This document shows, piece after piece, positions 1-38,489 of a DNA stretch of 64,000 nucleotides; the first letter of the stretch is position 1, and the number at the start of each line of letters is the position of its first letter. The position numbers and the translations under genes were made by a program. The notes under the pieces were generated by a model. It was given only the letters and a program-made list of their open reading frames with translations, ran no database searches and was not told the origin of the DNA. The DNA comes from Fimicolochytrium jonesii (Eukaryota): contig NW_026515690.1 of NCBI RefSeq assembly GCF_025526975.1, positions 1 through 64,000 on the forward strand. The letters are read 5' to 3'.

Positions 1-3000
1 GATGGAGCTGTTCATCCCCACCAGCGAAGATCTTGTCCCCCAATGGCAAGTCATTCGAAAAGACCGCTTGATGGGGAGCCATCTGATGTCCCTCCGCAAC
101 ACCACCGGTATGCTCTCCTCCCATCGTCCACAAACCATTCGCCTGATCGCCCGCAACCAACGGATGATCGCTGTTCCCGAATTTCAAACCATCCACATGG
201 CCGCCGAACAACTGTATGACCGGATCCAACTCATCATCGGCTACCTTTGCGCCACCTGCCTGCTCTCCCCGAATGCGGCTCTCGCGGTTGCTAGGCAGCT
301 CATTGCGAATTACACTGTCGTGCCAACGTGGCCCCGCGACGTCACAAGGCTTCAGCTCCCAAGCGTGCCCATCCAGCAATCGGGTGACACGTCCAACTCC
401 GTTGACATCGCCTTCTTGACCTCCATGGCGTTGAGTGATCCGTGGGCGCAGAGCGGATCCCAGGTGCGACAATTGCTGACTGAAGGTGCAACGGCGCACC
501 GTCACCGGGAATCTGTTCGGAACCATATGGAAAGCGCTTTAGCCACGGGTGGTTATTACTTCATCATTGCTTACCCTCGATATGCTTGGGTTCCAAGTCG
601 AATCGGCTTCGGTGTGGTATCAACGTTTTTGCCTCAGAACGTTGCCGGTCACTCGGAGCTGCACCAGACCTCCAGCTCGGCTCAGTTCTTCACTCAAGTC
701 CTGATCCTTCAGCAACCCGTTGCTGGCAGAGTTAGCGGTGTCCTTATCTCTGCTCACGATCCCGCCGCTTTCTCCTTTGAAAGTGTTGCCCAAGTCCTGA
801 GGACCGCCGCGTCCACATTGATCTGGTCAGGTGCTCAACCGCGCATAACCGACCGCAACATCACCTTCACAGCACCCATCCAGTGGAGCTCTCTGCCGGT
901 CCCACTCTTCCGTTCAGATGGCGCTATGAATACCTGGACCTCGTCCAATCGCCTCGTTTCCGCCGTGCGCGCCATGCCTCCCATGGGAAATGTTGTTACG
1001 GACTCCGAGGCCCAGCGGAATGCGGCAGCACAACCCAGTCCGAGGACAGATGCCCTCGCACAAGCCCTGTCGCAGGCCTCAACCGTTATCCTGTACATCC
1101 GCGCGTCGACAATACTCCAAACGGAGGCCGGGCGAGGAGGTTTGGAACGGCAATTGGTCTCTATGGTCAACGCGATCAATGCTGTTGGATTGCCTACTCC
1201 ACCCACGCGGGCCATCATAGCCGTTGAGTACTGTTCCACCAGTCAGCATCCATGGCGCGACCGTCGTCTTTTTCCACTGGTGACCCAGAGACTCTCTCAG
1301 GCTCCGACCGCTGGTGGTACTGTCCTCATGACGGTAAACCCGGATCGCCTCACCCGCCGCGGCGATGAATTCGAAGACATCTTCAGCGACCTCGTCGATG
1401 CCAACATCACCTGGGTTACCCAAGGCGTCGTGCCCGCGACGTCAACTTGGAGACAAGGACTTCCAGCGAGTCTCGATCTGATACATCAAGTCGCGCACGG
1501 CCGGGAGCTCGCGATCCAGCATGGCTTCTACAGTCGTTCGGTAGCAGCCCAAGTCCGCGTCATCACAAGCGACCAAGACGAGAGTGTGAAGCATATCCAA
1601 GAAGGGACAACGAGTTTGCTGAAGGGGTCAAAGTGGATCGTCATAGCCATTCTCCGCATCAGCCCACCTTTGTTCGTTAATCAAGGCCCGACTCCTCCGG
1701 GGAGCCTGGACCGACAACTGACTTTCCTGCAGTCCTTCTGCATCGAGCCCATCGAACATGTGCTTCGCCTAAGTGGAGTCTCAGCCTACAACGGTACCGC
1801 TGTCGAGCAGGTCCGCCTCCGCATCGCCACACTTCCCGCCAACCCCCCTGCACTTTGCCTCGTTGCTTCCGTTGACCGCCTCCTTCGACGGTCCTCTCAA
1901 GTCCAAGTTGCCGAACAACATCTCGCAGGTCGGCACAACATTATCTCCTTCTTGTGGTCATACGAGACAGTGGAATCCCTCCTAGATACCGACGAAGGCA
2001 TGGCCTTCCTCTCGTCTGTGTGTGCAGATATACGCCCTTTCCTGGATCAGCTTGCCATGGGCAGTAACGCGCTCGCATTGCCGATCGTGTGGCCCATGCT
2101 CTGGTTCGATCACGACAACGGGCTCACAAACCCTGCCGTACTCCAAAGCGCCGGGAAGGCCGAGGACTTCTGTACGGGGTTCATAGCCTCACAGTGGCAA
2201 GGTGAGCCCAGCACCGAGTTGCCGCGGAACCTTCTCGATGTGGGTGATTCCGTCGCAAGGGGTTTCCATGACCAACGGCGCGCGGCCTGGGAATCATATG
2301 TCGAAGGAGCGCTACCCGATACCAATACGCAAATCATCAGTTTGCAAGGTACAGTACGGAATCCGTTTCCTCATGCAAACCAGAGACACGTACCATACTG
2401 ATCTTCCTCTCCTCATCTCAATCTCACCAAGGAAAACAAGCGTGGGACTGCTCCTGTCCCGCCGCATCTCGGAATCAACCGCATTCAGAGGAGTGTGTCT
2501 GTGACTGCGCCCACTGCATGGAACAGAGATCTTCATCCTGCCCATGTAGCTATGACGACATTATCCGGATCACTCCTCGGACAAAGCAGGCGTCGTTATC
2601 CCCTGCGCTTTGCAGGTGCCATGCCTTGTGCACGTGCACATGCGTGTACTGCCACAAGCCTGGAAGTCGAACGCGGAGTAAGTATCGTTCCTGTATATGT
2701 GTAACTTCGTCTTGCCAACCTTTTCGCATGTTTTCTGCTTCCCTAGCCTTGAAACGGACTCGCTCTGACCTGACGGATCCTTCAAGCCAATCACAACAAA
2801 GTCAACTGACTCAATCCGCCTCCGGTTCACAACAGCAGGAAGGTCAACTGACTCAATCTGGGTCCGGGTCGCAATTGACGCCTCTCGTGTTTGCGGAAGT
2901 GGGAGAAGACCCAGCGAGTGACGTGAGCTTGCCGCCTCCAGCGGCCTCCACTTTGACTCCAGCGACTTTGGCAGCAACTGGCTCCGTGCTGTCGAAGTCG

Positions 3001-3875
3001 AAGTCAATGGAGTCGCCAGAGCCGCTGGAGTCTGGGAGTCCATTGACTTCGCCTTCGACAGCAACTCCAGTGACTGCAGCGACTCGACCAGCGCAAGCCG
3101 TTGGCCCCGCAACTGGCCGAGTACCCTTTCAGCGCATCCCGCGCATGACGGCACCGGTCAGGGCAGTTGATCCTAGAGAGCGCATTCGTGCTCCGATACG
3201 ATCCCGGAGAGGATCCCCCCTTGCTGCAACGGTAACGACTTCTGTTCCCACCCCGCCTGCGACTCAAGCGCAGCATCCGCTGTTTAGTCTCCCGCCAACA
3301 GCAACTGGACCGGTTGGGAGCAGCACTTCCACTTCCGGATTGCTTCCTTTTGGCAGACTTCCGCCGGGAGTTCAGATGGGGGCCAGGCTTCCTCCGGGCG
3401 CCCCGCTGCCTGGGCCTGCACATAGGACGTGCGAGACACCCGGATGCTCAAATCCAGCTCCACTTGGAGGTGCCGGAGGCATGAAATGCCAACCTTGCTA
3501 CAAGAGGTCCCTCCAAGATCGGAAGGCCGCCGCGGGGGACTCGATATGTGCACGTCCTGGCTGTGATAACCGTGTCACAAACAAGAAGGTCAGATACTGC
3601 AGTACCGCTTGCTACGAGCAAACGACAGCAAACCCAAAAGAAGTGCCCCACCTGCGGCAAGGTGGTTCTCCCAGGCCTGGGAAGATTTTGTGAGGCCCAT
3701 GTTGTGCGAACCAAGAAACAGAGGAAGGAGTAGGAGCTGGTGGATTGTGCACAGTAGTGTGTTGAGGTGCTGTATATCGGGGCGGGATCAGTTTGTGAGG
3801 CCGCTTAGTGAGAATCGCGGCTTATGGGGATGCCGTCAATTTCGACGCGCCCGTCGTACCCTACATCCTACTGTA
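1..3875. mobile_element. Right part of a putative TIR-bounded element carrying the tandem serine-recombinase gene; terminus ...CATCCTACTG|TA at 3864-3875
   Basis: 3830-3858 is an exact 29-bp reverse complement of 37729-37757 inside the MITE. 3864-3873 plus TA equals the MITE terminus. The other end is not in the window. Confidence 0.6.
2..3733 (+). CDS. Large spliced protein with two tandem serine-recombinase/resolvase-like catalytic domains, a Cys-rich segment, an S/T/P-rich linker and C-terminal Cys/His zinc-finger-like motifs. May be 5'-truncated by the window edge; apparent 1-bp frameshift near 3635.
   Basis: Domain 1: VILYIRAST..Q...GLERQ...E..S...RDR...VLMTVNPDRLTRR (Ser codon 1106). 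Domain 2: IAILRISP...SLDRQ...SGVSA...CLVASVDRLLRR (Ser codon 1661). Both match the Y-x-R-x-S...L-x-x-Q...S...DRL-x-R serine recombinase pattern. Intron 2349-2431 (GT...TACTGAT...AG) joins ORF 2..2401 in frame to ORF 2518..3693. A probable 69-nt intron lies at 2678-2746. Confidence 0.8.
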
Positions 3876-3989
3876 CATATATGTAGGATACGTTGCTACA
3901 ACGGCGTAGTCAGATTGGTAGCCGAAGAGAAGGTGTAAACATCAATAGCATCTTAACGTGCATTCCGGTGTATCAACGTTGAAATTTCA

Positions 3990-4801: not shown

Positions 4802-4934
4802 AAAAAAAAAATTGTCCCTCCGAAGAGGGGATCCACTCTAGATATGCGTGTCATCCTTGCACAGGGGCCATGCTAATCTTCTCTGTATCGAAATCCAATA
4901 TAGTAAGTGTCAGAGGGGTGTTGCCACCCTTGAC
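4802..4934 (-). ncRNA. U6: U6 spliceosomal snRNA
   Basis: Minus strand reads GUCAAGGGUG-GCAA-CACCCCUCUGAC (5' stem-loop)...CGAUACAGAGAAGAUUAGCAUGGCCCCUGUGCAAGGAUGACACGCA..., containing the ACAGAGA box, AGC triad and ISL, followed by a T10 Pol III terminator. Confidence 0.97.
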
Positions 4935-5413: not shown

Positions 5414-8400
5414 ATGACGGCTATACGCCACTCAGAAGAATGGAGAGCTACTCTGCCTTACAATATTGACGGCGATGGGGAGGCTATGCTAAGGGAGATA
5501 AAACAAGGCGTTGCAACCGCCGTAGCAGCGGCGGACTATGCTCCGGGCTGCTTCAGATGGTTCAAGAGGTTGAAGAGGTGGGTGATTGTGAGGGGAAAGG
5601 GCAGGGAGGAGGGGGGATTTTGCGGGCGTGGCGGTGATGGTGAGGGTATCGACCGGCGGTTGTCGCTAGCGGAGCCAGCAGGATTTCGTTGTGTCGGCTT
5701 GATCAAGATGGCTGCTGGCTACTGTGGATCTCAACCCACACGTTGTCTCCTCCCCACTCCCCATGAAAAATAGTTATCTGGAGCTGAAGTACCCATTGTC
5801 ACTCGACGACCGCGCCAACTTTGCGCTGATCTTGAACGAACTGATATGTATACCGGAGATGGACCTGAACGTCGTAGGGTTCTTTGCCATACTATTGGCA
5901 AAGTTGATCAAGTAAGTGGTGCCTCTGATGATGTCCACTGACCGAGAATGCCTATCGACTGACCGAGCACCTTTTCCCGATCAGGCGAAAGGAGGACATT
6001 CCATCAGATCGTATCACCCTGAAATGGCGACCGCTATACAAGCGCATCAAAGATCTATCCACGCCAAAGGACATCTCACGAGTGTCCATGGGCAGCGCCG
6101 CAGTCGCTGGCGCCGTCGCATCCGTCGTTTCGCGCGGCAACCGCTTCTTCCCTCCAGAAGCAACCCAAGAAATTCTCGAAGAGCTTCTACCACGCATCAA
6201 CGCGCACGAAACGGGATGGCTTGCGGTCGCCAAAGCTCTACTCGCAATGCTACTTCCCACCGAAAAGCCCCCTCCTCTTCCAGAGTCCCTCAAATCCACA
6301 GCCGGCGTCGCGCCATTCTTCTGGGTCCCGACCCTGTTCTCGCTATGGTCCCTCTCTCGCGGCTCAGGACCGGAGATTAGCATGTTCCTGGAGCTTCTGA
6401 GCCGACTGGTGGAAGACCAAGCGCCGTGTCCTTACAATGTTAATTTCTCTGAAGCCCAGGTTCGACAAGTCTTTGCCGCGGGATTGGGAACGCTGCAACT
6501 CCCCGTGGGAAGCGGCACAAACGCAAACACGGCTAGTGGCGGGCAGGGCGGCCGGATGGGGTCCATGATGATGAACCGCGCGAACGGCGGTGGAGCAGGT
6601 GGTGGTGCCGCGGCTGTGTTGGGGCAGAAGGCGACGGTTGATCCCTTCGCGGGCTTTGTCGTCTGGACTTTCTTTCCAAAGAATGCGCCTGGTGTTCAGT
6701 TCAACACTATGACGCATTTGAAGGAGATGATTCAGGCGATTGAGAGTTACTACCATCCGTCGAATTCGGGACAGTGGACGTATCCCCTTACAAGGATGCT
6801 TCAGATGCTCGGGTTTCAGTATCTGCGAAGATTACGCTATGGTGCGTGCGTTTGCGCTGTCAGGTTATGACCTGAAGACGTTCATGCTTACAATCTGTGC
6901 GTTTCAACAGAGGCACAGCCCGACTGCCCCGTTCCACCCGAATACCGCTTGACATCTGAAATGTCTCACGAATTTGTAACTCTCCTGCGTCCCATCGTTT
7001 TCCTCTCAATGTTTGGCAAAGACCAGCTATCTGTCCACTGCTCACATGCCGCACTCAAATACTTTGCCTGGATCCAACCTGCGGAGGTCTTGCCAGGGCT
7101 ATTGGACCGCGTCTACCCAGCCCTGGAAACAGTCACGGAAAATCATCGGACGATCAGCTGCATCGGCGCATTGACGCAAGTCGCGCTACCGCTATTGAAC
7201 AGGAAACATTATCCAGAGGGCGGTGCGCATATCCCCGCTTTGCTGGATCTGGTGTTACCCGGCATCGATCCCAACGACCATCAGAAGACGTTTGCGGCGC
7301 TGAATTTCATTCGACAGGCGCTTGTGTGCATCCCTCTCGTGGATTTGACAAAAAGCCCGGTGCCGGCAGAAGTCGCGGCGGAGCAAACCATCGAAGACGA
7401 GGAGTGTCGACTGGCCACGGCGGTGTTTGAGGACTGGGTCGTTCGGTTCCTCGACAGAGTGTTCCTGGTCTTTGAAAACTTGCCGCAGGAGCACGGCCAC
7501 ATCAAAAGCAAAAACTCGCTAGAATCCTCCATCATCCGCTTGATCAAAGTTACATGCCACCTCGTCTTTATGCAAATGTCGCCCGAGATCGAAGGCATCG
7601 CCGTGCGGAAGGTCGCCAATTTCGTCACCGAGAACGTCATTGCAAACGCCACGAAAGCCGTCGGCTCCCTTTGTGGGATGACCGGTACGCCCAAAACACG
7701 GTTGGCGACCTTCGTCCCGCTCTGCCACAAGCAAATCATGACTGAGCTGGAACACGGCGCGAGTTCGGATAGCGTCACGCGGTCGTCGTCGTTCCCGTTC
7801 GGGTTTGCGGCCATGTCGGACGCCCGCCTGCATTGGCATCAGTGTATCCTGTTCAACGTAGTTGCGCAGAGCGGCGCGGAGGTTCTGAATTGGAAGAAGG
7901 AGATCATGGAGGTCGCTGTGGCGAGTATCAAGGCGTGTAAAAGCCAGAGAGGGTGGAAGTGGGCGGGGAAATTGATCCGGCTGGTGGTCAGCAGTTCGTC
8001 TTCGACATATCCACTTGAGATGAGGAGCTTTGGGAGCACGGCGTGGAAAAACGAGGCGTTCGTTGCCGCGAGCCACATGCACTGGGGCGAACCCTCCGAC
8101 CAGAAGAACTTGGATATCGACTGGCACTCCCCGAACGATGAGGAAAAGAAGCTTGCACTGGAAGTGGTGGATGAGCTTGTTCCGCAGGCGTTAGGGGAGC
8201 TGAAGCGGTTGTTGGGAGAAGTGCAGGATGGGACGCGGGTTGGCGATAAACGGGTGCATAGCAATGAGATTCAGAAGTGGACGTCGGTTCTGCATAACTG
8301 TCTGAGGGGGATGACGAACCTTATTGGACCGGAGGCTCCGCAATCAGAAGTGCACGGGCATTCATCCACTGCGAAGAGCACTGACGTCATGGAAATCGAC

Positions 8401-11400
8401 CCACCACCGGGCGAAGAAGGCTCACACGACGTCGAAGCCGCGGATGAGGAGGAAGAGCGCATGCGAGATCCCCTATCCTGCCGCCTCCCGGTCGCCGCCG
8501 GCTACTGTTTCGAACCCGGCACCCCCCAACACGCCCGCGTCCAAGCCCTCCGCGACGAAATAACCCTCTACCTCGAACAAGCATCCCAGACTTTCCGAAC
8601 CCACTCCGAAGACGACATCGAATCCACCATCCTCCTCATCCGCTGCACCATCACCCTCCTCAGCAACCGCGGGGTCCCACGCACCGTCTACGAGAGCCTT
8701 GTCCACGTGTACGCCTATCTGCGCATGATGCTGACGGAAGGCAAGGATGTACCGGACAAGATCGTCCCCCGGTACGTGCGCGTGTCGAAAGCCACGTTGC
8801 TGCATCTCGTGAGACTGGAGTATAACGCGGGCTGCGGGCCGGTTGTGGCGTCGCAGAAGCGGCTGGTGAGGGAGTTGGCGGAGTGGTGTGTATCGCGGTA
8901 TGCGGTGGTGAGGAAGGAGGCGCAGAGGGCGGTTTCGACGGTGTTGCGGTGTTTTCCGGCGTCGGTGAGGAGGGCGGTGTTGAATGGCGCGGTTACGATT
9001 GTTGCGTCCGAGGGGAAGCAGAGGGGATGGCTGCCCGCGCCTGCCGCCAATTTAGCAGAGGGGTTGGATGCGAAACATGTGGCGGATATCGAGGCGGATC
9101 GGCTGAAAGGCGCGTTGTACCTCCTCAAAGCATCTGCGATGGTCGGGATGGCCGTCAAAGATTATCAACCGCTCAGGAAGGTCCTCGTCGCGCTCGCAAA
9201 AGCCTATACATCCGACAAAAAGTCGATCCAAAAACGCTGGGTGGTTCTGTCGAAAGAAATTCTGGGCAGGTATCAAGAAATCGCCATCGGGCTCCCCATC
9301 TCGGACGACGCGGTGGCCGCCTCTCGGAAGCTCGTGGACGTCAGTACCGTGGATCAAGGCCTCATAACGAGCAGCACAACACGCGCCAAATCACACGCGG
9401 AGAAGAACAGGGATGCGTACAATGGCATGATTGTAGATCTGATCCATATCCTGGAACGCCCGGGGATCCCGATCACGTACCGTTCGGTCCTCGTCAGCTG
9501 TGTCGAACTCGTGTTGCGGGAAGACGCACCCGTCCCCGGCGATGTTACGAAGTTTGCGTTGGAGAAGATCAACTCGGACGAGTTGTCGTTGAGGCAGGTC
9601 TCGATGCGGCTGTTGCATAAGGTCATGTACATCATCAAGCATCGGTCGAAGGTGTACAGCCCGGAGACATGCCCGGCTGTGCTGTGTACGACACACGAGA
9701 TGGTGGATCCCCAGGCGGTGCTCAATGGCCCGGCGAAGCGGATCCAAAGTGCGGAGGAGTGGCGCACGACGGTATTTGTGGACGACATGAAACCAGGGTG
9801 GCTCTGCTGGCCTGCGAAGGTCAAAGTTCGGCGCGGTTACTCAGGAGCGGTTGCGTCTGATAGTTTCCAATTCAACGACCCGGAGTCGAGCGAGAGTATC
9901 CAGCACCTCACGACGCAGCTCACATCGAACGACTTCTGGACGTTATACTTTAAGTTCCGCTCGCTGGAGAATGCGGGAGGCGGCGGAGGAGCTGAGGCTG
10001 CCACCGCGGTAGGGAGCGCACCCGCCGAACGCTTCCAGAAATCTGCCGCTGCCGTCTACGCGTATGCATGCACCATCATCGGACCACGTGTACTTGAATC
10101 CGTGAAACCGTTCGTCACGCAACTCTCCGAGGCGCCAGTTACAGACAAAGCCGCGCAGCGGGCGATTATGGAGGTCGTCGCCGGCTGCCTGGCCGGGTCC
10201 AAGTACTGGCGGTTCGAGGACGTGCAGACGTGGGTGTGGACGTGGGCTACGGAGATTGTGCAGAAGGGCTTACAGATTGCGGACACGGAGACGTTCGCGC
10301 TGTGGGCCCCTGTGCTGCGATACGGATTGGCGCAACGAGATCCTAGCCGACATCTTCCGTTGATCACCAGCCTGCTCTCGCAAACCTTGGATCCGACATC
10401 GCAGTCGTTTTTCACGGAGTCGAAGAAATTGACTACTGCTCGCATGATACTTACGACTTACAACTGGCGGATTGTATCGCCGTCGGCGTCGACGTCGATG
10501 GTCACTGAGTCGCATGTAACGCTGCCATTACCATTGGGCGAGCTGCTGAAAACGTATCTGGCTGCCTTGGGACATCCGTACGAGCAAGTCCGTCAGAACC
10601 TCGGCGCGAATATTTCCGCTGCCGTTAGCGCCGCGTGGGCCATTCGGGCAAAGGACGTGGCGGCCGTATTTGATCTTTCTAGACCGCAAGTCACGGGAGC
10701 GAGTGGGCAAGCGTTCATGCCCACCGAGCTGGATGCGGTTAGCCGACCAGTTGTTGGAGACCTGGTTAGGCAGCTGGTCACGCTTCGAGAGAGACTAGCC
10801 ACGAGTGGCGAGAAGGAGGGAACTAGTGAACAGGGTTTGGAGTATAAGAACGCTGGGATGACGGGTAAGCAGAAATTTCTTCTTCCAGGTGGCATCGATC
10901 CTTTCTAACTTCCCAACTCCATTACTGTAGTTCTATCCTGGCTCTCGAACTCCCTGATGTCACCAACAGTCGCCAGTCACTATGCCTACATTCCGCACCT
11001 GATGCCGGAAGTCCTGCAGATGCAAGTCTGGGGCGACCAAGACCTGCAACGTAGTGCTCAACTCATGTCGCAGCTGTACGTCAATCTTCCTCACCCCGAC
11101 ACGATGGTACCGGCAGCGCTGGATATGCTGCTCCGCACCAGCAGTCTGAATGCGCCAGCACCCGCGGACTCGACAATGGTGTTGAGTCCATCGCCAAGTC
11201 CTCTCGTACGATGGCAGCTCAGGTGGCGAGTCCTTCCACTGCTCCAAATCTTTTATTTCCGGCACTTGTTCTACATTCAATCCGATGTCGCCCTTCGGGT
11301 CGTGGAAGGCGTCGTAGATCTCCTGCTAGCCGACCCACATGTGGAAGTCCGCCAGCTGGCGTCAGTGACCCTCGCCGGTCTCATTCGATGTTCGCATCGA

Positions 11401-11878
11401 GACGCCGTGATGCGTTTGAAGAAGAAATTCGAGAAGCTCCTGAAGAGCGCGCCGTTGCCCTCCCGCCGTCGACGATCAGATGCATCGTCTCCAACGTCTC
11501 CTGAAGCCTCGGAAACGTATCAGCAGACTTTGCAAAGGCGCCATGCTGCTGTTCTTGGTCTGAACGCCCTGGTACAGGCCTTCCCTTATGAGGTTCCGCG
11601 GGATTGGATGCCCGACGTGCTGGTCACGTTGTCTATGTGCGTGGGAGACCCTGTTCCCGTTGGATCTGCCGTTCAGAAACTGTTTGCCGAGTTCAAGCGA
11701 ACGCATCAGGATAAGTACGGATTCCTGCTCGTTTTACGTACTGCGTCCTGTCGTCCGCGTATTCTAACTGCTTCCCTCTTCCTACTTTATCAGCTGGCAT
11801 GAAGATCTGGAAGCATTTGATGAAGATCAGAGGGAGCGCTTGGCTGATTTGTTGATTTCCCCTAGTTACTATGCTTGA
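5414..11878 (+). CDS. BLM10: Proteasome activator PA200/Blm10 (multi-exon)
   Basis: N-terminal LPY...; IESYYHPSNSGQW; LPGIDPND..KT; RHAAVLGL.ALV.AFPY.VP.WMP; EFKRTHQD.W; C-terminal HbYX motif PSYYA* (stop 11876-11878). ORFs 5342, 5724, 6082, 6949 and 10957 are linked by GT-AG introns. Confidence 0.95.
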
Positions 11879-29330: not shown

Positions 29331-29592
29331 AGCAGATCGCTTCTGTATCCGATGTAGTTGTCATCCCTGTTCCCGGCGGAGGTGCTGTCTCACTGCTGTA
29401 TATATTTGGATTTTTCTTGTATATAAAAGATCTTCGAGCCTTGAACCTTAGGCCCGCTAACCATGGACACTCTATGCTGGGTGGCCTAAGCCTTCCGCGC
29501 TACTACGCCATGGGTTACCGCTTTTGGGAGTTTCACTGTAGATATACAGTACTGTACGTGACTTTCTTGACGGAACCGGGCGATGAACATCC

Positions 29593-29730
29593 AACCTACA
29601 ACATGCCTTGGGGCGCTCTATACTGGTCCGAAGCCCCACGTCTCCCGACTTGACAAACAGGGCAGAGAAAACCAAACCTACGACATGCCTTGGGGCGCTC
29701 TGGTCCGAGCCCCACGTCTCCCGACTTGAC
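29593..29730. repeat. Imperfect direct repeat of about 60 bp, two copies (29593-29654 and 29675-29730)
   Basis: AACCTAC(A/G)ACATGCCTTGGGGCGCTCT...GGTCCGA.GCCCCACGTCTCCCGACTTGAC occurs twice. Confidence 0.9.
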
Positions 29731-29896
29731 TCCAACTTGACTGAAGTTGACGCGTTGTAGTCAAACTTTTCGCGTCGTAGCCGGCTACGTAACATTCTAA
29801 CAGACACAACGACCGACCACAACCAAAAAAAAGCTCAACTTTGCAAAAATTGTAGACTGTCCGGCCTACTACACAAACAGACACCTAGAAAAACTT

Positions 29897-29979
29897 TGAC
29901 GAGAGTGGGATTTGAACCCACGCCTCCGGAGAGATCAGGGCCTTAACCTGACGCCTTAGACCAACTCGGCCATCTCGCC
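29897..29979 (-). tRNA. tRNA-Leu(AAG)
   Basis: GGCGAGATGGCCGAGTTGGTCTAAGGCGTCAGG-TTAAGGC-CCTGATCTCTCCGGAGGCGTGGGTTCAAATCCCACTCTCGTCA: cloverleaf, long variable arm, A and B boxes, downstream T5. Confidence 0.96.
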
Positions 29980-37697: not shown

Positions 37698-37705
37698 ACC
37701 AGTTA

Positions 37706-37904
37706 CAGTAGGATGCCAAAACGGACGTTACGACGGGCGCGTCGAAATTGACGGCATTTGGGCTACTACCTAGGTTAGTAGTCGCGGCTGGCCGGCCCCC
37801 GGTCAACCACGCAATGGCTAGACGGCAGCCGGTGACTTCTGCTGGCCACAAAGATTTATTGACCGCGTCCATGCCGTCGTAACGTCCGTTTTGGCATCCT
37901 ACTG
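37706..37904. mobile_element. 199-bp MITE with perfect 31-bp TIRs and flanking TA dinucleotides
   Basis: TA|CAGTAGGATGCCAAAACGGACGTTACGACGG (37706-37736) ... CCGTCGTAACGTCCGTTTTGGCATCCTACTG|TA (37874-37904); no coding capacity. Confidence 0.93.
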
Positions 37905-38489
37905 TACTTTATCGTCGCATAGCTTGTCATTGCATGTATAGCAGCGCCAGTTCGCCCAGGCGTATGAAGTGCATCAAAACCTATTCCTGCATCTTAAAGC
38001 TCTTATATGGCTTTTACGGTCTGCGTCGGCGGATTGCATTATTAAATGATTCGGCTCGATCTCAACAGGCGGTCATCAGAGAAGCGCTTCCCCCTGGACG
38101 CAGGTAAAAATCTCTGTGGCTCTCACGATAAACTGGCGGCGTAGCCGGACAGTGCTGCCACGCGGTGGCATCGTCGGTTCATTGAATGGATTAAGTCGAT
38201 GGTTGCAAGGATTTTAACTGCGTCCAGGGAGAAGCAGTGGATGATGTGGATGAGGGAGTTATGGAATTTGTCAAGGTAGCGTGCCTTGAGGAGTTTGCCG
38301 GCGTCGGAGGTGTCGGGTCCCCAGAGCTTTGACGAGTGTTATCTGGTGACGCCTGGGACGCTTTCTCGCGGTGCAGGGCAGGGTGCAGGGATTGAGAGCT
38401 GGATTGAGAGGATTGTGGGGATGTGGCAGTGTTGGGCGGTATCACAGTGCACCCCCCTCGAAGCCAGACGACACTTCGTGTGATGTAAC

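Follow-up and report, generated by a model that had tools for sequence, protein, structure and literature searches.

A single gene at the left edge of a 64,000-nt stretch of Fimicolochytrium jonesii DNA (the window) raises the question of whether a fungal protein can carry two serine-recombinase domains in one chain and, if so, what such a protein does. An initial annotation of the sequence had reported two sets of resolvase-type motifs in one polypeptide, and both were recovered where it had placed them, in an open reading frame at 2..2401 on the forward strand. Here we describe the gene, the family to which it belongs, the likely arrangement of its two domains on DNA, and the case for and against its being part of a mobile element.

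Gene Structure and Genomic Setting

The recombinase gene is truncated by the left edge of the window, with its start lying outside, and the residue numbering used here is provisional. The coding exon that is open at this edge (2..2348, +) encodes an N-terminal domain, two recombinase domains and an arm, and the product is 42% identical over 806 columns to the closest relative, P0002 (KAI9101923.1), a 1035-aa hypothetical protein of the chytrid Phlyctochytrium arcticum with 45% identity over the searched region. The N-terminal domain (2..1039, +), which begins beyond the window edge, is of unknown fold; it had zero matches to Pfam, PHROG, NCBIfam and PADLOC profiles and contains R-x-D-R-x-x-G-S, L-R-L and F-R-x-D-G motifs kept across the family. 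An assignment of this domain as an N6-methyltransferase was discarded, its score of 0.84 falling below the tool's 0.9 mark with no support from profiles. Catalytic domain 1 (aa 359-476; 1076..1429, +) and catalytic domain 2 (aa 547-653; 1640..1960, +) were both delimited by profile, alignment and structural matches. In domain 1 the predicted helix E covers aa 491-522 (1472..1567, +), with R501, Y510, R512 and R519 conserved. That of domain 2 (aa 711-730), placed with its arm at 2132..2348 (+) from the model and the alignment, is preceded by a family-specific insertion and followed by the arm with conserved Q-G and R-G.

The annotated stretch had been described as an intron-containing gene. Homology to P0002 alone places two introns, both 3′ of the catalytic domains, and none falls inside 1085-1960, the stretch that had been annotated. 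Intron 1 (2349-2431, +; 83 nt, GT..AG) changes the frame and was the top of 25 open-frame donor/acceptor pairs compared against P0002 (score 241, runner-up 224). Intron 2 (2678-2746, +; 69 nt, GTAAGT..CTAG) is in frame and scores 222 against P0002 when spliced versus 194 when retained. The exon between them (2432..2677, +) encodes a cluster of 14 cysteines of the C-x-C-x-x-C type that likely binds zinc, and the last exon (2747..3733, +) encodes a Ser/Thr/Pro-rich linker followed by C4-type fingers. The spliced frame comprises at least 1179 aa and is 46% identical to P0002 over 960 aligned positions. A one-base frameshift near 3636-3642 leaves the last zinc finger out of frame in the F. jonesii copy; from about nt 3638 homology to four relatives moves to the next frame, with the stop as read at 3691-3693 and the homology-based stop at 3731-3733. 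Either a mutation or a sequencing error may account for it.

Genes found downstream of the recombinase gene in the window include a U6 snRNA gene (4802-4925, −), whose snRNA match occupies 4821-4925, with a CCCTC-TTCG-GAGGG hairpin and then a run of ten T at its 3′ end, and a Blm10/PA200 proteasome-activator gene (5932-11799, +) with PSME4 HEAT repeats in 6871-10905. Both place the locus in a fungal nuclear genome.

The window also contains several short repeats. A likely short degenerate miniature inverted-repeat element (MITE) lies just past the recombinase gene (3752-3875), and its right end has stretches of 29 bp and 12 bp that recur exactly at the left end of a 203-bp MITE-like element (37704-37906) that has perfect 33-bp inverted ends beginning TA-CAGTAGG, a TA-CAGT start which we take to resemble Tc1/mariner ends. 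A second small inverted-repeat element (38086-38235) has 24-nt arms, 92% complementary and 102 nt apart. Two 46-nt direct repeats, 82 bp apart, occur near an 83-nt tRNA gene (−) within 29574-29979. We considered the TA-flanked inverted-repeat end at 3830-3875 as an end of the recombinase gene's own element, but its partner end at 3752 (an 11/15 match, with 3 such in 59,900 positions elsewhere) makes a separate short MITE more likely. The match of a possible second end, head-to-head at 3876-3925, was insignificant (92/2000 shuffles). Targeting of U6 was rejected, Rfam having matched none of 4 related loci.

Two Serine-Recombinase Domains in One Chain

By itself, the F. jonesii protein scores poorly against the resolvase profile PF00239, on which the initial annotation had proposed to check its two segments: domain 1 has an E value of 0.0077 and 16.8 bits, below the 23.3 cut-off, and domain 2 has no match. 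Close relatives (P0002, P0003, P0004, P0006 and P0008) exceed the cut-off, some of them with two stretches, P0003 (48.8 bits) among these. A PDB sequence search with the family profile gave Bxb1 integrase as the best match, on domain 2 (E 2e-4), followed more weakly, at E 0.11-0.79, by Sin (on domain 1, E 0.11), TP901-1 and Tn552. The domain 1 and domain 2 profiles match one another with 97% probability and 19% identity.

Structural comparison used an alignment-based model of aa 347-782 (pLDDT 93.6, pTM 0.89); a single-sequence fold gave pLDDT 39. Serine recombinases were the top 26 among the best 50 rows (Z 6.3-9.7), the first unrelated fold appearing at Z 5.3. The solved serine recombinases align per domain, to model residues 14-157 or 199-385, and matches for each domain separately reach Z 9.0-9.7. 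A second structural search, independent of Foldseek, also returned serine recombinases as its top 13. Foldseek, the comparison proposed at the outset, returned nothing from the PDB at E<=0.001 when given the two-domain model, although Sin chains were ranked with probability 1.00. Together, the relatives that pass PF00239 and the per-domain matches of the model confirm that one fungal chain holds two tandem serine-recombinase catalytic domains, the fold of each being predicted from the model.

Catalytic Residues

In Tn3 resolvase, Y6, R8, S10, D36, R68 and R71 are reported to be crucial and R45 less so, and mutation of D36 or Y6 nearly abolishes cleavage (PMC2794168). Domain 1 has equivalents of all six crucial residues. 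In the F. jonesii copy it contains Y365, R367 (nt 1100), S369 (nt 1106), Q384, E409, S412 and R421, with D448, R449 and R452 forming the D-R-x-x-R motif; domain 2 contains R552 (nt 1655), S554 (nt 1661), Q572 and S594, and its D-R-x-x-R motif comprises D625, R626 and R629. Among family rows covering domain 1, the serine is kept in 45/46, the R8 equivalent in 46/47, the R45 equivalent in 48/49, and the R68 and R71 equivalents in 50/50 each, while the Y6 position is aromatic in 39/47 and the D36 position is E or D in 50/50. For domain 2 the figures are 51/56 for the serine, 53/56 for each of the R8 and Q19 equivalents, 52/53 for the S39 equivalent, 47/52 for each of the D67 and R68 equivalents, and 49/52 for the R71 equivalent. 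The serine and the R8, R68 and R71 equivalents are thus conserved in 90-100% of covering rows in both domains, bearing out the expectation that the catalytic Ser/Arg motifs are shared by homologues. The exact R-S-D-R-R set is intact in 40/46 rows for domain 1, in 38/52 for domain 2, and in both domains in 25 of the 42 rows that cover both.

Conserved equivalents of Y6, D36 and R45 were not found in the domain 2 alignment and, judged by these residues, the two domains are not equivalent. In the alignment with the family profile, Bxb1 integrase likewise carries a residue other than Tyr at the Y6 position. The family is very probably one of active recombinases.

Distribution and Origin of the Family

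A phmmer search of 1.84 billion representative proteins (E<=0.001) returned 86 matches, 40 of them at 1e-10. By domain profiles derived from 56 aligned rows, 50 of the 86 contain domain 1 followed by domain 2, 20 domain 1 only, 14 domain 2 only and 2 neither, a count biased toward tandems because the query had both domains, with profiles that favour tandems too. Both domains are present in 31 of the 32 matches of at least 650 aa, and the exception, P0029, is a repeat artefact that was excluded from the alignments. Fifteen of the 20 domain-1-only matches stop within 60 residues past the domain, many near the position of an intron in four metagenome loci (L001-L004, described below), and the other five extend 73-179 residues beyond it. 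Of 22 matches looked up, 11 carry a species name and all 11 are fungal, belonging to Phlyctochytrium, Dissophora, Podila (two), Elasticomyces, Aureobasidium (two), Daldinia, Pseudocercospora, Zymoseptoria and Violaceomyces, hosts that we take to span the Chytridiomycota, Mortierellomycota, Ascomycota and Basidiomycota.

A tree was built on 121 columns from 24 members together with 23 bacterial domains that had been selected by similarity. Sequences of each domain type cluster together in it with strong support (99/97 and 100/99); the tandem therefore arose once, long ago. Comparison of internal duplication with fusion of two recombinases as its origin gave a p-AU of 0.55.

One motif pattern each, run on viral contigs (12 stretches) and prokaryote genomes (6 stretches), turned up no relative, and tblastn found none in plasmids (query P0003) or phages (query P0008). 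Profile searches of bacterial genomes matched 16/401 and 30/301, with only two or three candidates scored per genome, and most matches are single domains within frames of integrase length. No two-domain frame was present in the 28 bacterial loci examined, in which several long frames are cut by locus ends; one weak bacterial match (G597, 15 bits), outside these 28 loci, spans both parts of the profile.

A motif search for giant-virus resolvases gave 14 matches, all due to chance. In BFVD, several resolvases of giant viruses, 286-337 aa long, are among the high-ranking matches to the structure model. One of these, the 328-aa Pithovirus resolvase A0A481Z649, aligns over its whole length (362 columns, rmsd 19.9) and, on this structural match, may be a tandem form; 307-aa Bacillota clusters score 0.92. 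These proteins could give the tandem a precedent.

Mobile Element or Host Gene

We consider it quite possible that the protein is the integrase or transposase of an undescribed, low-copy fungal mobile element, its chain likely bridging two DNA duplexes. The broader statement, that the gene belongs to an element that is or recently was mobile, is somewhat probable. The main rival, which we regard as rather unlikely, is a domesticated host enzyme, encoded by a fungal gene of long standing that is vertically inherited and often lost, and acting in site-specific inversion or resolution, or in DNA relaxation, at fixed host sites. The named members group by host lineage, which fits vertical descent. 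The 22 clusters looked up have 1-4 members each and Elasticomyces holds two 99.6% identical sequences under five accessions, the pattern expected of a fixed single-copy gene; a site-specific element, however, would also be single-copy. The housekeeping neighbours of the F. jonesii gene, U6 snRNA and Blm10/PA200, also speak for a host function. Members from two Podila species, by contrast, share only 29% identity (those from two Aureobasidium species are 52-53% identical), and a yield of just 86 matches among 1.84 billion representatives sits poorly with a host gene, as does the tail frameshift in the F. jonesii copy.

Metagenome loci bear on both readings. Broken copies occur at 4/4 of them, representing two independent cases (L001, and L002-L004), and this decay in both independent cases argues against a domesticated enzyme. 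The L001 member (L001:1307-5775) is broken by a stop and a frameshift. It contains 95 bp repeated perfectly in inverted orientation (1307-1401 / 2102-2196) and, at about 1880-1990, a fragment of a second N-terminal paralogue, and its Cys-rich exon lies on the opposite strand, a layout that looks like repeated inversion at the locus or misassembly. The other three loci (L002:9600-11100, L003 and L004) are near-identical contigs with a decayed family remnant between two host-type genes. In both L001 and L002-L004 an intron interrupts helix E1 at one shared G|R position, which favours the domesticated host enzyme. The presence of introns as such does not tell a host gene from a transposon, because 75% of fungal Glomhopper (CryptonA) elements are reported to carry introns (PMC13465315). 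Neither element ends, a target site, an empty allele nor a second copy was seen within the 64-kb window, which lacks the gene's 5′ flank.

Arrangement of the Two Domains on DNA

As described in PMC4058570 and PMC6007550, a serine-recombinase tetramer can be divided either into cutting dimers, each on one duplex, or into rotating dimers, each spanning two duplexes and held together by antiparallel E helices. Strand exchange requires one half of the tetramer to turn relative to the other, and subunits that share a duplex sit on opposite sides of the swivel (PMC4058570; PMC6007550). A tether within a cutting dimer would be expected to hinder rotation because its subunits flank the swivel, and a tether within a rotating dimer would not cross it.

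Both fungal domains align, including helix E, to subunits of activated tetramers with rmsd 2.3-3.1, among them Sin 3pkz_G (Z 8.7, rmsd 2.3, 108 aligned) and the gamma-delta chimaera 2gm4_B (Z 8.8, rmsd 2.7, 120 aligned). With 1gdt, 5cy1 and 5cy2, which are inactive dimers on DNA, only the core aligns, and two wild-type dimer chains, 2rsl_A and 3g13_B, also align through helix E with rmsd of about 4.2. The IS607-type structure 3lhk_A, with its helix E folded back, covers model residues 13-375, from domain 1 to helix E2 (Z 7.2, rmsd 6.7). In the model, helix E1 is joined to domain 2 by a linker of about 23 residues, most of which form one helix. These fold matches lean weakly toward a rotating over a cutting pairing, and a rotating-dimer geometry, in which one chain would bridge two duplexes, is on this model-based evidence modestly probable.

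The initial annotation had proposed instead that one chain cuts both strands of a single asymmetric site, that is, that its two domains form a cutting dimer, whether of a mobile element or of a host recombinase. This proposal was not established and we consider it improbable. Each domain is flanked by its own candidate DNA-binding region, which would suit two different half-sites, and the model predicts a defined packing of the domains (pTM 0.89); set against this, the tether would cross the rotation interface, the linker of about 23 residues is mostly one helix, and the DNA-bound dimers are matched by core only. More improbable still is that domain 1 alone cuts and domain 2 is regulatory or scaffolding, making the protein a nickase, topoisomerase or one-sided recombinase, for although domain 2 has longer branches and more motif losses than domain 1 and is without equivalents of residues on which Tn3 cleavage largely depends, it keeps its serine together with equivalents of R8, Q19, S39, D67, R68 and R71, and Bxb1 too is without the tyrosine.

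With a rotating dimer in each chain, two chains would form a complex of four active sites, each chain likely bridging two duplexes. We favour, with modest confidence, an arrangement in which the two copies of domain 1 would share one duplex and the two copies of domain 2 the other, which would suit recombination of two unlike sites such as an element's circle junction and a target. Following the pattern of other serine recombinases, we predict that the element would be excised as a circle and re-integrated through a 2-bp crossover, with domains 1 and 2 specialised for unlike partner sites, the element junction and the target, and that these sites would be read by the N-terminal domain and the putative zinc-binding tail. 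The boldest form of this proposal, an undescribed superfamily of eukaryotic DNA transposons in four fungal phyla, a serine counterpart of the Cryptons whose single-chain rotating dimer cuts the element junction with one domain and the target with the other, is doubtful.

Comparison with Known Systems and Significance

Small serine recombinases have one catalytic domain per chain of about 200 aa and a C-terminal helix-turn-helix (HTH). Both fungal domains have in common with members such as gamma-delta/Tn3 resolvase, Sin and Hin/Gin the R-x-S and D-R-x-x-R motifs and, in the model, a catalytic fold that includes helix E. Unlike these resolvases and invertases, the fungal protein has two domains, more than 1100 aa and a Cys-rich tail, and no HTH profile match was obtained in the F. 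jonesii protein. Of the large serine integrases (Bxb1, TP901-1 and phiC31), Bxb1 is the best PDB sequence match of the fungal profile. In these integrases a Recombinase domain and a zinc ribbon with coiled coil follow a single catalytic domain. The fungal family differs from them in its tandem catalytic domains and spliced eukaryotic gene, and sequence profiles found neither the Recombinase domain of large serine integrases (PF07508) nor a zinc-ribbon Pfam domain in the window protein, P0002, P0003 or 65 further matches.

IS607 TnpA and the eukaryotic IS607EU/Fanzor2 elements offer another case of a serine recombinase in eukaryotes. A rotating dimer with antiparallel E helices is proposed to pre-form in IS607 (PMC4058570), the same geometry as that suggested here for the fungal chain. 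IS607 ORFA is described as a single resolvase domain behind an N-terminal MerR-type HTH, partnered by TnpB (PMC3673617). The fungal protein instead has two catalytic domains and, ahead of them, a far larger N-terminal domain; in full-length relatives 300-490 residues precede domain 1, with no HTH match there, and just 1 of 29 members matches the IS607 model (E 0.0027). An adjacent TnpB/Fanzor2 gene and GG termini are further marks of IS607 and IS607EU elements, and the genes identified downstream of the F. jonesii recombinase gene are those for U6 and Blm10. The fungal Crypton and Starship transposons probably have a similar way of life, based on a recombinase, and recombinase-based fungal elements are reported to have introns and poorly conserved terminal repeats (PMC13465315). 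This is analogy and not kinship, as the Crypton and Starship enzyme is a tyrosine recombinase unrelated to the fungal tandem serine recombinase.

According to a 2026 review (PMC13565253), IS607EU stands alone among known DNA transposons of eukaryotes in using a serine recombinase, the eukaryotic cases described in three further papers are of the IS607 type only (PMC3627910; PMC3673617; PMC2715888), and the word "serine" does not appear in PMC13728883. No paper describing a tandem two-domain serine recombinase in fungi was found in the full-text literature searched, most of it outside subscription journals, and within that literature the initial annotation's view that no such family had been described holds. 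The family is real, conserved and apparently undescribed, with a known enzyme class in a new architecture and a new family.

If mobile, the family would constitute a second, unrelated, intron-bearing lineage of serine recombinases across fungi and hence an added class of eukaryotic mobile DNA; if domesticated, it would represent a recombinase with a host role not yet known. In either case the subunit-rotation mechanism could be probed in a new way with a natural two-domain chain, since separate removal of each serine would show which pair cuts which duplex. An enzyme at work on eukaryotic chromatin that treats two partner sites differently would, if this proves true, also interest genome engineers.
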